Below, piece by piece: positions 26,609 to 39,136 of a stretch of 64,000 nucleotides of DNA; the first letter of the stretch is position 1; each line of letters starts with the position of its first letter. The stretch lies in NCBI GenBank assembly GCA_965243655.1, contig CBDEVV010000017.1, forward strand, positions 1,396,319-1,460,318, given 5' to 3'. Source of the stretch: Dehalococcoidia bacterium. GTDB lineage: Bacteria; Chloroflexota; Dehalococcoidia; Lucifugimonadales; CAJWER01. Position numbers and translations under genes: made by a program. The notes below the pieces were generated by a model, which saw nothing but the letters and a program-made list of their open reading frames with translations, did no database searches and was not told where the DNA came from.

Positions 26609-26956
26609 GTGCCCGCAACAGCCAAGTCAACCAACACTGGTGTATCGGTCCGAAAGGTCAAGCCCGTGCTCGACCTCGTCCGCGGCATGTACGTCGAAGA
26701 TGCTCTGGACATGCTGAGCCTCATGCCGTCCCCGGTCGCTGCGCGAGTCGCCAAAGTCGTCAAGTCCGCCTCCGCCAACGCGGAGTCTGAGCTTCTCGGC
26801 TCGGCGGCGGACCTGAGGATCGTCGAGACGTTCGCAAACCAGGCCACGACCCTGAAGCGGTTCAGGGCAAGGGCAAGGGGCCGCGTCGCCCGCATCAAGA
26901 AGAGGAGCTGTGACATCACGGTAGTCATCGACGAGGTAACGCCGAATGGGCAATAA
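26609..26956 (+). CDS. rplV: 50S ribosomal protein L22
   Basis: [15 protein letters not shown]...[21 protein letters not shown] start. Confidence 0.94.
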
Positions 26957-27680
26957 GACACACCCGATAGGCTTCCGCTTGGGCGTCATCAAGGACTGGC
27001 AGTCCAGGTGGTTCGCGGCCAGGCCGGGCGAATACAGGGCGCAGGTCTCGGAGGACATGGAGATCCGCAGCACGGTCCTGTCCTCGTCCCCGGACGCGGG
27101 CATCTCCAAGGTCGAAATCGAACGCTCGAACGAGGTTGTGGTCACAGTACACACGGCCAGACCCGGCATCGTCATAGGACGCGGCGGGCAGAAGGTGGAA
27201 GAGCTCCGAAAGATGATAGAGAGCAAGTCCGCCAAGCGCGTCAGGCTCAACGTGCAGGAGATCCGCCAGCCCGAGCTCGACGCCTACCTGGTCGCGCGCA
27301 ACGTCGCGGACCAGCTGGAGCGCCGGATCGCCTTCCGCAGAGCCGTTCGTCAGGCCATAACCCGGACGATGCAGGCGGGCGCGCAGGGCGTGAAGATCAT
27401 ATGCGGAGGACGGCTCGGCGGTGCAGAGATAGCCCGAAGGGAGAAAGCTATGGAGGGCAGAGTTCCCCTCCATACCCTAAGGGCCGACATCGACTTCGCC
27501 GTCACCGAGGCCGCAACGGACTTCGGGCGCATTGGCGTCAAGGCATGGATATACAGGGGAGACATCCTCCCGGCTCCCAAGGAGCAGGAGGACGATATGG
27601 CCCCCATCGAGGTAACAGTCACGGCCGAACGAGAGGCGGCAACGGATGCTACAACCGAGGAGAGTGAAGTACCGGAATAA
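26946..27680 (+). CDS. rpsC: 30S ribosomal protein S3
   Basis: [23 protein letters not shown]...[15 protein letters not shown] (KH domain). Confidence 0.97.
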
Positions 27681-28063: not shown

Positions 28064-28267
28064 ATGGAAATCGACGACCTGAGAGCACTGGTTGACGAAG
28101 ACCTCGCCACCGAATTGGAAGAGGCGCACAGAGAGCTGATGAACCTTCGGTTCCGCGTGGCGACGATGCAGCTTGCCAACGTGACCCAGGTAAAGCAGGT
28201 CCGGAAGCGGATCGCGAGAATAAACACGATCATGACGGAAAGGGAGCTGGCGAAAGCCAACACATGA
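28064..28267 (+). CDS. rpmC: 50S ribosomal protein L29
   Basis: 67 aa. [14 protein letters not shown], operon position. Confidence 0.93.
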
Positions 28268-29115
28268 GTCACGAGCGCCGCAAGATAAAGACCGGCCGGG
28301 TTGTCAGCGACAAGATGGACCGCACGATAGTGGTCCAGGTCGAGTGGCGAAGCCCGCACCGCCTGTACAAGAAGCCGATCAGACGTATGTCCAAGTTCAT
28401 GGTCCACGATCCTGACAACGCCTCGATGGTTGGGGACATAGTCCAGGTCATCGAGTCCAGGCCCAGGTCCAAGACGAAGCGATGGCGCCTCGTCAAGATC
28501 CTGCAGCGCAGCGAAGTGGTGGACATCCGCCCCGAGGATATCGGGGAGGACCCCCAGCCCGCTGTCGCAGTCTCCGAGCCGCCTGCTGATCCCGTGTCCG
28601 CCACGGACGACGCGGTGGAGCCGGAGGTCGAGACAGTTGCCGAGGTTGGTGCCGACACCGAGCCAGACGATTCCGCAGAGGAGACCGAGCCGGTGGCCGA
28701 GGCCGACACCGAGCCGGACCATTCGGAAGAGGAAGCTGAGCCGGTGACCGAGGCAGACACCGAGCCAGACGAAGCCGAAGAGGAAGCCGAGCCGGTGGCC
28801 GAGGCCGACACCGAGCCAGACGAAGCCGAAGAGGAAGCCGAGCCGGTAGCCGAGGCCGACACCGAGCCAGAGGAAGCCGAAGAGGAAGCCGAGCCGGTAG
28901 CCGAGGCGGACACTGAGCCAGCGGAAGCCGAAGAGGAAGCTGAGCCGGTGACCGAGGCAGACACCGAGCCAGAGGAAGCCGAAGAGGAAACCGAGCCGGT
29001 GGCCGAGGCCGACACCGAGCCGGAGGAAGATGATCAGACAGGCTCAGAGGGTCAGGCGGAAGCTAGAGCTCCTTCTGACAGCGAAGACGAAAAAACGGAG
29101 ACGGAGCCCCGGTGA
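28264..29115 (+). CDS. rpsQ: 30S ribosomal protein S17 with a C-terminal acidic repeat extension of about 200 aa
   Basis: The first 85 or so aa are canonical S17 ([20 protein letters not shown]...RWRLVKIL). The frame then stays open for about 200 more aa of E/P/A/D/T repeats. Its stop overlaps the rplN GTG (GTGA). Confidence 0.9.
28636..29043 (+). repeat. tandem repeat, 8 copies of 51 bp (17 aa), inside the rpsQ 3' extension
   Basis: Unit starts gagccggtg at 28687, 28738, 28789, 28840, 28891, 28942 and 28993, exactly 51 nt apart, plus a degenerate unit at 28636. The unit encodes [17 protein letters not shown]. Confidence 0.95.
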
Positions 29116-29480
29116 TACAGATATATTCCCGCCTCAAGGTCGCCGACAACTCCGGCGCCCGCACCATCAGCTGCATCGGCGTGCCGGGCGGCAGCGGACG
29201 GCAGTATGCAGGACTGGGCGACATCATAGTCGCCTCCGTGAAGGAGGCCGCGCCGGCAGCCGCAATCAGCAAGGGCGAGGTCGTTCGCGCAGTGATCGTA
29301 CGGACCAAAAAGCCCTACAGGAGGACGGACGGGTCGCATATTCGTTTCGACGAAAACGCGGCCGTCATCGTGAACGAGGACCGGATGCCGCGCGGTACTC
29401 GCATCTTTGGCCCGGTCGCGCGCGAGCTCCGCGAGAAGAACTTCATGCGTATCGTATCGCTCGCCCCGGAGGTGCTGTGA
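29112..29480 (+). CDS. rplN: 50S ribosomal protein L14
   Basis: [17 protein letters not shown]... Confidence 0.97.
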
Positions 29481-29481
29481 G

Positions 29482-29799
29482 GTGAAGATTCGGGCGGATG
29501 ACAACGTGATCGTCATTAAAGGTCGCGACCGCGGCAAGCAGGGGCAGGTTACCAGGACGTACCCGCAGGCCGGCAAGGTGCTGGTGGAGGGCGTGGGCGT
29601 GGTGGTCAGGCACACCAAGCCGACGGGAACGGTGCGCCAGGCCGGGATAATCCAAAAGGAGATGCCAATACCCGCCTCGAACGTAATGCTGCTCTGCTCG
29701 CACTGCAGCAAGGGGGTCAGGGTTCGGTACAGGACACTGGCGGACGGCACGAAGGCCCGGGTCTGCTCCAGGGATGATTGTGGAGAAGTAATAGAGTGA
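29482..29799 (+). CDS. rplX: 50S ribosomal protein L24
   Basis: In-frame GTG 29482 ([26 protein letters not shown] motif). The track ORF begins at 29407 inside rplN. Confidence 0.92.
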
Positions 29800-30494
29800 C
29801 GACGGAGAAGAAAAACCAGGGTTCGAAGGCAAAGGCATCCTCCCGTCAGAAGGGCGGGTCTGCGCGAAGGTCCTCCAAGAAGGGCAAGCAGGACGCCGCT
29901 CCGGCGGCGCCGTCCGAGCCGCGCCCTATGCCCAGGCTGCTTGGGCGATTTCGCACGGAGATCACTCCGCAGCTCATGAGCGAGTTCGAGTATTCCAGTG
30001 TGATGCAGGTGCCCCGGCTGACCAAGATCATGATGAACATCGGCATTGGCCAGGAGGCCAGCCAGAACTCCCAGGCCATCGAGAACGCGACGGGGGACGT
30101 GGCCAAGATCTCCGGCCAGCGTCCGATCGTCACCCGGGCCAAGAAGTCCATCGCGGGCTTCAAGCTGCGCGAGGGTACTCCGGTCGGTGTCGCCGTCACG
30201 CTCAGGGACAAGCGCATGTACGAGTTCTTCGACAGGCTCGTAAGCTCGTCGCTTCCCAGGATCCGGGATTTCAGGGGCGTCTCGCCCGAGTCCTTTGACG
30301 GCAGGGGAAACTACTCACTTGGCATACGGGAGCAGATAATATTCCCGGAGATCGACTACAACACCATCGATAAGATTCGCGGCCTCCAGGTCGTCATAAC
30401 TACCACGGCGAGGACAGACAGGGAGGGCTTCCGGCTCCTGGAGCTGATGGGAATGCCGTTCGCAAGGTCGGAGTCAGAGGCCGCGGGCCTGTAG
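29796..30494 (+). CDS. rplE: 50S ribosomal protein L5, probably with a basic N-terminal extension of about 44 aa
   Basis: The core starts at [22 protein letters not shown] (ATG 29928). GTG 29796 overlaps the rplX stop (GTGA), has GGAGA upstream, and the intervening 132 nt is GC3-rich. Confidence 0.85.
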
Positions 30495-37996: not shown

Positions 37997-39136
37997 ATGC
38001 TCAACTTCCAACCGTTCGCATCGGATGATGTCCCCGAGGACGGGACGGAGCCTCTGCAGGACCCGACCATAGAGGTCGAGGAGGCGGACGAACAGTATGG
38101 CAAGTTCGTGGCCGGTCCCCTCCCCAAAGGCTACGGAATGACATTGGGGAACCCGCTCAGGCGCGTCCTGTACAGTTCGCTGCCGGGAACGGCCGTGACA
38201 TCGGTGAAAATCGAGGGTGTACTCCACGAGTACGCTACCATCCCCCATGTCAAGGAGGAGGTCTCGGAGATACTCCTGAACATCAAGGGCATCCGCCTCA
38301 GGTCTGAGGTGGACAGGCCGGGCAAGCTGAGGCTCGAAGTCGCCGGCCAGGGCAAGGTTTGCGCGGGCGACATCATGGCATCCTCCGACTACGAGGTCGT
38401 GAACCCCGAGATGCATATCGCTACCCTGGACTCTGACCAGGCCAAGCTCTCGGTCGAGTTCAACGTGGAGCGCGGCACGTCTTATCAGGAAGCGGAGGGC
38501 GAGGGCCTCCCCATAGGCGTGCTGCCAGTGGACGCGATCTACGGCCCGGTCCGGAAGGTCAGGTACTTCACAACGGAGAACATCAGGGTGGGCCAGAGGA
38601 CCGACCTGGAACGTCTGACCATAGAGGTGTGGACGGACGGGTCCATCTCGCCCATCAATGCCCTCCAGCAGGCTGGGAACGAGTTGGTCACCAGGTTCTT
38701 CCTGTTCGCCAACGCGGAGCGCGTCGTCAAAGGAGATGGAGCCCCGCCTGTGGCCCTGCAAATCTCGCCGGAAATGTACAGCGTCCCTGTGGAGCAGCTG
38801 GACCTGTCGTCAAGGACACTGAACTGCCTGAAGAGGGCGGGGCTCGACCAGGTCGGCCATATACTGGAGATGAAGCCGGAGGACCTCCTGGAGATCAGGA
38901 ACTTTGGAGAGAAGTCGCTCCACGAGCTCTACGGTAGGCTCAGGGAGTCGAACCTGCTGCCGCCGGCGCTCGACCCGGAGCTTGAGAGTCAGGACCAGGA
39001 GGAGCAGCCGGTCGAAGAGCCCACGGAGGTCGTGGAGGAGAAAGAGGAGAAGCCCGCCAACAAGGAGGCTGATGACATCGAGTCGGGATTGGACGCGGTG
39101 TTCTCCCAGATCGAAGGACTTGGTGAAGATCAATGA
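37997..39136 (+). CDS. rpoA: DNA-directed RNA polymerase alpha subunit (acidic C-terminal tail)
   Basis: [34 protein letters not shown] motif [16 protein letters not shown]...NFGEKSL. Confidence 0.95.

Follow-up and report, generated by a model that had tools for sequence, protein, structure and literature searches.

The ribosomal protein uS17 is universal, and as a primary binder of 16S rRNA it sits on the 30S body; it is normally small and basic. Acidic tails are known from other ribosomal proteins, namely, the poly-Glu that RimK adds to bS6, which is post-translational and only a few residues long, the C-terminal extension of eukaryotic uS2 (RPSA), and the ends of the P-stalk proteins; the tails of uS2 and of the P-proteins carry conserved motifs with known partners. 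As do uS4, bS16 and bS20, uS17 binds the 5' domain of the 16S rRNA (PMC6007441). Extensions of uS17 itself have also been seen: in Mycobacterium smegmatis and Cutibacterium acnes the protein is lengthened at its N-terminus by residues that contact 16S rRNA at h7/h9 (PMC10085706), and the 105-aa (amino acid) uS17 chains of Thermus in solved structures have a C-terminal extension of about 20 aa. Here we analyzed the rpsQ gene, which encodes uS17, in a stretch of 64,000 nucleotides (nt) from a Dehalococcoidia bacterium (GenBank assembly GCA_965243655.1, contig CBDEVV010000017.1, positions 1,396,319 to 1,460,318 of the forward strand; the window hereafter, to whose first letter all positions refer unless a contig is named). 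In this gene a uS17 core of 85 residues and a C-terminal tail of 198 residues are encoded in one frame.

Our favoured reading is that the tail is a translated, genome-encoded, disordered and polyanionic appendage of uS17, which is resized by slippage or unequal recombination and most likely acts through its bulk charge and volume. We put the probability of this reading at roughly 0.6, a figure that includes its well-supported structural part; the functional part, which we infer, is weaker. In the full-text literature that we searched, no published description of such an S17 tail was found.

A uS17 core with a long acidic tail

The core is readily recognized. Pfam S17 (PF00366) matches residues 11-78 of the rpsQ product with 95.4 bits (cut-off 25.9), TIGR03635 (uS17_bact) matches residues 6-77 with 99.2 bits (cut-off 88.7), and NF004123 scores 100.2 bits (cut-off 74). 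Residues 4-84 align with residues 5-85 of the 87 in Bacillus subtilis uS17, and the core also aligns end-to-end with the solved bacterial chains, which in the PDB are 76-105 aa long, or 135 aa where they are N-terminally extended; no chain in this set (76-135 aa) has a comparable tail. The gene gives the single S17 match in the whole genome (3.62 Mb in 17 contigs, 97% complete), without a second, tail-less paralogue, and it lies on a contig of 3.33 Mb. It sits in the S10-spc operon between rpmC and rplN, with overlaps at both junctions, the second of which, GTGA, consists of the rpsQ stop TGA at 29113-29115 and the rplN start GTG at 29112-29114. Its GC content at third codon positions (0.70) and its codon choice resemble those of the adjoining ribosomal protein genes. 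All of this indicates that rpsQ is the one functional uS17 gene of the organism.

The tail consists of an acidic, non-repeat linker of 39 aa, 136 repeat residues and a unique end of 23 aa. The first-pass annotation of the window had described S17 as continuing in frame into a hyper-acidic tail of about 200 aa made of eight phased 51-bp units. The in-frame continuation and the length were borne out, and the description as repeats applies to the 136 residues of the array, not to the linker or the end. Tandem Repeats Finder (TRF) reported the region 28651-29029 with a period of 51, 7.4 copies, 89% matches, 0% indels and a score of 569. Seven GAGCCGGT anchors are spaced exactly 51 nt apart, all in codon phase 0 of the S17 frame, and these anchored units together with a degenerate unit before them give 8 x 51 nt, with precisely the limits that had been proposed. 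The units are not an identical stutter, as had also been recognized, since they vary both synonymously (GTG/GTA, GCC/GCA/GCG, CCG/CCA) and non-synonymously (A/T, D/E/A and others). A second open reading frame (ORF), rich in Ser, Ala and Gly, runs antisense to the array (28269-29015, minus strand, 248 aa) and mirrors it; we rejected it as a gene because it is a mirror of GAG/GCC-rich codons.

By composition the tail comprises 64 Glu, 34 Ala, 24 Pro, 23 Asp, 17 Thr and 15 Val, and it has no aromatic, Leu or Met residue. Its 87 Asp and Glu residues (44%) are set against four Lys and Arg, which brings the net charge of the tail to -83 compared with +13 for the core and about -70 for the whole protein. 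An AlphaFold2 run with a 34-sequence alignment gave the core a predicted local distance difference test (pLDDT) score of 77-95 in 10-residue blocks over residues 1-80, about 90 or above for most of the five-stranded OB-fold. In the tail, nearly every position from 96 to 283 scored below 50, and no secondary structure was predicted. When searched alone, the tail matched no Pfam or NCBIfam family. The lack of a predicted fold, the high net charge and the paucity of hydrophobic residues all point to an intrinsically disordered polyanion.

Distribution, coding status and evolution of the tail

A comparison of rpsQ lengths in relatives, which the first-pass annotation had suggested, revealed acidic S17 tails of 146-242 aa in all nine genomes of the genus. 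In the eight of these that were examined in detail, both the ATG start context and the (G/A)TGA overlap with rplN are kept, and most of the order shares the overlap that had been noted at this locus. Across the order the tails range from 0 to 242 aa, with long ones in many families, each having its own repeat unit. In other orders of the class S17 is mostly of normal length, apart from two sampled exceptions whose tails measure 79 and 102 aa. Outside the class, within the phylum, the C-terminal tails are 0-70 aa, and the large open frames that we checked there were mostly open sequence upstream of the start. The nearest relatives that bear a name are metagenome-assembled genomes of Chloroflexota. 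In the protein database, S17 proteins of 155-496 aa form at least 212 clusters, and the 120 listed all contain PF00366 and are called simply S17 where they are named.

We then considered the spacer between the end of the S17 core and rplN in the 46 genomes of the phylum in which both genes could be placed. The spacer exceeds 300 nt in 19 genomes, and in each of the 19 it is entirely a single open frame fused to S17, which ends in a 4-nt NTGA overlap in 18 cases and 4 nt before the rplN start in the remaining one (G252). The sole long untranslated gap before rplN, 143 nt within a spacer of 290 nt, occurs in a genome of the same order, G032, where this non-coding DNA follows a weakly acidic S17 tail of 48 aa; G032 may thus hold a decayed tail. 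The 19 tandem arrays detected in relatives each have a period divisible by three, the values being 12, 24, 27, 33, 45, 51, 54, 87, 96, 135, 141, 147 and 150 nt. The genomes G078, G208, G243 and G304, which are flagged as unpublished, were counted in the phylum-wide tally only, and no conclusion depends on them.

An open frame by itself is weak evidence in repeat DNA of 65% GC, where the antisense frame is open too. However, the continuity with S17, the periods of 3n and the conserved stop/start overlap recur across many independent repeat families, which is not explained by chance, and we therefore regard the tail as real. With tails common to all nine genomes of the genus and to many families of the order, it is a lineage trait rather than an artefact. 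Some public S17 calls of the genus (P0002, P0005, P0008, P0009 and P0010) switch frame inside the repeats and end in Arg-rich sequence, and that of P0008 continues into rplN out of frame; these switches probably stem from mistakes made in sequencing or assembling the repeats.

What is conserved between families is composition and charge, and not sequence. In 17 lineages with tails of at least 65 aa, the composition is 33% Glu, 23% Ala, 11% Pro, 10% Val and about 3% Lys+Arg, and no 4-mer or 5-mer beyond the junction with the core is shared above composition-preserving shuffles, of which 87% (4-mers) and 98% (5-mers) attained a maximum as high as the observed one. The pentapeptide EPVAE, considered as a conserved repeat motif, was rejected, since it occurs in only 5 of these lineages and the sharing of k-mers nowhere rises above that of the shuffles. 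In the order, and also elsewhere among Dehalococcoidia, the core is directly followed by a junction of the pattern [AV][DE][IV]xP[ED][ED]I, which here reads VDIRPEDIG, and in the alignment of relatives P90 is invariant and I93 nearly so.

The last residues of the tail are likewise similar throughout the genus, reading DGKTETE(T/P)R and encoded as ACG GAG ACn GAG nCC CGG TGA. Within these codons, two GGAG motifs upstream of rplN are conserved in 8/8 genus genomes, and ACGGAGACnGAG is conserved at the nucleotide level in 7/8 (GCG in G002). From their position, the conserved C-terminal peptide looks like the footprint of a putative Shine-Dalgarno site of rplN rather than a protein motif, and we discarded KTETEPR as a docking motif, preferring to see in the embedded GGAG pair the rplN ribosome-binding site. 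Since the GGAG motifs lie in the last rpsQ codons, the overlap of the rpsQ stop with the rplN start, an arrangement usually read as translational coupling, is kept.

We compared the gene with that of the closest species (G003), using uncorrected Nei-Gojobori proportions, for which the counts are small. The core has 13 synonymous differences over 56.7 sites and 2 non-synonymous ones over 198.3, that is, a ratio of non-synonymous to synonymous change (dN/dS) of about 0.04. The corresponding figures are 7/27.3 and 8/80.7 (about 0.39) for the non-repeat linker (residues 86-121), and 8/20.2 and 10/69.8 (about 0.36) for the last 30 codons. Replacement sites therefore appear to evolve about ten times faster in the tail than in the core, yet not neutrally.

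The array of G003 is collinear with the one in the window and has eight anchored units, one of them of 48 nt, compared with seven anchored units here. The units at the two ends of the array have orthologs in the other species, whereas the interior units are more alike within either genome than between them. All eight units of G003 have GTA or GCG where five of the seven here have GTG, and G003 has 'PADA' in place of the 'PDEA/PEEA' of this genome. Such homogenisation of units within a genome is what concerted evolution by unequal exchange typically leaves behind, and we interpret the pattern accordingly as its probable trace. Nearly identical alleles of sister lineages also differ by whole units: the pair P0013/P0016 (99% identity) by 36 aa, or two 18-aa units, the pair P0011/P0015 (98%) by one 18-aa unit, and the pair P0017/P0028 (97%) by 66 aa, with the proviso that short contigs, in which repeats can collapse, are the source of some of these alleles. 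The variable copy number that the first-pass annotation had anticipated is thus found both between species and between such alleles of sister lineages. A second strain of this species was not found in a scan of metagenome contigs with the core and junction, in which the best identity was 62%. A blastn search of the whole genome with the unit and the array returned only chance matches of 15-20 nt outside rpsQ, the best of them 17-20 nt long; an origin as a mobile cassette or a dispersed insert of the Rickettsia palindromic element (RPE) type was rejected, since the 51-nt unit has no other genomic copy and is tandem rather than dispersed.

Acidic regions are present elsewhere in the genome as well. 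In a genome-wide scan of acidic windows the S17 tail ranked first (201 aa), followed by regions of NusA (153 aa) and of the 2-oxoacid dehydrogenase E2 acyltransferase (150 aa). The best protein-level matches to the tail are the E2 linker, the C-terminal region of NusA and a linker of FtsK, and the best tblastn match outside rpsQ is again the E2 linker region. In E2 (G000:C17:839125-840729) this is an unusually long, repetitive Glu/Ala/Pro linker of about 150 aa between the E3-binding and catalytic domains; in NusA (G000:C17:2764348-2765967) an acidic Glu/Ala/Pro region of about 150 aa follows the KH domains and precedes an Arg-rich end, GPRRGRRRRRRGGAGQQNRRR. Shorter acidic ends occur on uS3 (26946-27680, plus strand, 244 aa; the final 40 residues or so), on RpoA (37997-39136, plus strand, 379 aa; a tail of about 60 aa beyond the C-terminal domain), and on bL9 (G000:C17:269575-270171) and bL25 (1808314-1809054 of the same contig), both with C-terminal tails of about 60 aa. 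Almost all sampled genomes of the order have a tail on bL9, which is 23-94 aa long in most of them and mostly non-repetitive; its length is not significantly correlated with that of the S17 tail (Spearman 0.24, p = 0.28, n=23, uncorrected for phylogeny).

The features of the locus are collected in Table 1. Further downstream, the longest ORF for uL5 (29778-30494, plus strand, 238 aa, TTG start) has about 50 extra basic residues before the canonical start MPRLLGRF at about 29928. Use of the canonical start would leave a gap of 129 nt after rplX, and both starts remain candidates; in a sister genome the gene caller took the canonical start, which gives 172 aa and a gap of 176 nt.

Table 1. Features of rpsQ and its flanking genes in the window
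Feature	Position	Strand	Basis or remark
rpmC (ribosomal protein L29)	28064-28267	+	TIGR00012, 67.8 bits; stop overlaps rpsQ start (ATGA)
rpsQ, whole gene, uS17 of 283 aa	28264-29115	+	ORF; Pfam and NCBIfam matches; sole S17 match in the genome
uS17 OB-fold core, residues 1-85	28264-28518	+	Pfam S17; alignment to B. subtilis uS17; AlphaFold; dN/dS
Junction, residues 86-95	28519-28548	+	Pattern directly after the core, across order and class
Non-repeat acidic segment rich in Pro, Ala and Val, residues 96-124	28549-28635	+	Sequence and translation
Tandem array, eight 51-nt (17-aa) units, residues 125-260	28636-29043	+	TRF; in-frame anchors; first and last units degenerate
Unique acidic C-terminal segment ending KTETEPR, residues 261-283	29044-29112	+	Genus alignment; nucleotide conservation of ACGGAGACnGAG
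Two GGAG motifs	29097-29100, 29103-29106	+	11 and 5 nt upstream of rplN start; read as Shine-Dalgarno from position
rplN (ribosomal protein L14)	29112-29480	+	Pfam L14, 178 bits, full length; GTG start overlaps rpsQ stop (GTGA)

Candidate explanations for the tail

Under the favoured reading, the tail would project from the surface of the 30S subunit, as it starts where canonical uS17 ends. Because of its net charge of -83, the chain of 198 residues cannot lie on rRNA; repulsion by rRNA would instead keep it as an expanded polyelectrolyte, whose contour length of about 70 nm compares with about 25 nm for the ribosome. Such a chain could serve as a non-specific steric and electrostatic 'bristle' that alters the effective size and the surface charge of the subunit or ribosome; it could limit the sticking of ribosomes to each other or to polycations, or retain counter-ions, and perhaps it shields the S17 core, which is very basic, until assembly. 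Length and charge would then be under selection, with the copy number set by replication slippage or unequal recombination. We prefer this bristle-like role because composition is conserved and sequence is not.

Several points weigh against this reading. The tail is evolutionarily dispensable, as it measures only 0-40 aa in some members of the order, mainly in genomes of 1.3-1.5 Mb and also in some of 3.3-3.6 Mb. The dN/dS of about 0.4 in the tail is based on just 15-18 substitutions per segment. In the same genome, NusA and the linker of the E2 acyltransferase are Glu/Ala/Pro-rich in a similar style, and mutational bias in a genome of 65% GC could therefore yield such sequence without selection specific to S17. 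Finally, the surface location of the uS17 C-terminus is our assumption, taken from established structures.

In the main rival, the tail would be tolerated junk, that is, a neutral product of slippage at a solvent-exposed C-terminus, constrained only to be non-sticky and to stay in frame up to the rplN start, with a length and charge of no function. We consider this possible, though clearly less probable than a tail acting by charge and volume. It would account for the wide range of lengths in the order, with tails short or missing in several families, for the rapid gain and loss of units, and for the lack of any motif conserved beyond composition; similar low-complexity sequence in unrelated proteins of the genome and a bL9 tail whose length does not track that of S17 would also be expected from it. 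However, long tails in every genome of the genus and in many families are always acidic, with Lys+Arg at 1-5%, none of the 19 long spacers has a premature stop followed by an untranslated remnant (G032 being one possible case of decay), and dN/dS is below 1 in the non-repeat parts of the tail. Moreover, the acidic region of S17 is by far the longest in the genome, which is unexpected if exposed termini drift alike.

A bolder extension of the favoured reading is that the S17 tail is a tunable ribosome organ, its length set by slippage as at a contingency locus, which together with the tails of bL9, bL25, RpoA and NusA controls ribosome spacing, hibernation or condensates, or docks Arg-rich partners. 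We regard this as doubtful; if true, such a contingency-like tether on S17 would be a new layer of regulation at the bacterial ribosome surface.

Still less probable, in our judgement, is a specific docking platform or nucleic-acid mimic, in which the polyanion would recruit or sequester basic partners at the body of the 30S subunit and so regulate assembly, transcription-translation coupling or hibernation; the candidate partners would be Arg-rich tails, such as that on NusA here, basic extensions of ribosomal proteins, polyamines and Mg2+. The clustering of acidic tails on components of transcription and translation (uS17, bL9, bL25, uS3, RpoA and NusA) would fit this idea, as would the Arg-rich end of NusA after its acidic region and the junction motif kept after the core across the class. 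On the other hand, the repeats have no short motif conserved across families, no co-varying partner was identified, and a charge of -83 is far above what would be needed to neutralize a core of +13.

Least of all do we favour the view that the tail is an assembly error in copy number or frame, is removed after translation, or is an mRNA-level spacer or structure controlling rplN: frameshifted Arg-rich tails in five public calls (see above) show that such repeats are error-prone in assemblies, and the repeat RNA (28636-29130, plus strand) folds more stably than its shuffles (z = -4.9), but the locus lies on a contig of several megabases, its units are distinguished by substitutions, G003, an independent sister genome, matches the array with eight collinear units, the frame and the rplN overlap are kept in dozens of independent genomes, the nucleotides of the units are not conserved between families whereas amino-acid composition and 3n periodicity are, and we rejected the RNA fold as evidence, since low energy is expected of any GC-rich array and the minimum-energy structure has a frequency of about zero in the ensemble, no structure dominating.

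Comparison with known ribosomal protein extensions

Compared with the first-pass annotation, which treated a single locus, the present analysis adds that the tail is an order-wide trait with independently amplified units, and that the rplN ribosome-binding site would explain the conserved C-terminal peptide. The uS17 described here is 3.3 times the usual size and strongly acidic overall, and although its added part is hypervariable, a whole order of uncultured and abundant bacteria maintains it. Provided that ribosomes retain the tail, every 30S subunit would have a flexible chain with a charge of about -80 that could span the particle. The lineage would then be a natural setting in which to learn what surface charge and disordered tails do to the assembly, packing and solubility of ribosomes. 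There is also a practical consequence, as S17 is a standard marker gene: its tails are frameshifted in several public assemblies and could collapse in short-read ones, and they should be trimmed from marker alignments.

The protein shares with canonical bacterial uS17, such as that of B. subtilis, E. coli and T. thermophilus, the OB-fold core, the position between rpmC and rplN and the single copy; it differs in that canonical uS17 is basic and has 76-105 aa, while the protein here has 198 additional residues and is strongly acidic overall. The same Ala/Pro/Glu style is found in the organism's own E2 linker, a region of 150 aa with strings such as AEPAAEVAEEE; that region joins folded domains, whereas the S17 tail is a free end. 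Rickettsia palindromic elements likewise add low-complexity coding sequence to ribosomal protein genes, but the S17 unit is tandem and not dispersed. As are the acidic tails of bS6, uS2 and the P-stalk, the S17 tail would be a negative, flexible sequence on the ribosome surface, a location that we infer here; unlike the three of them taken together, it is genome-encoded, far longer and hypervariable, and has no conserved motif. The nearest parallels are the extensions of actinobacterial and Thermus uS17, which are also clade-specific additions to the same protein. In contrast to those short pieces, the tail described here is C-terminal, about ten times longer than that of Thermus, repetitive, polyanionic, hypervariable and predicted to be disordered. 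The extensions of M. smegmatis and C. acnes bind rRNA in a manner that is not open to this tail, given its polyanionic character and predicted disorder. In kind, then, the tail is a clade-specific extension of a ribosomal protein, as the actinobacterial and Thermus extensions of uS17 are.

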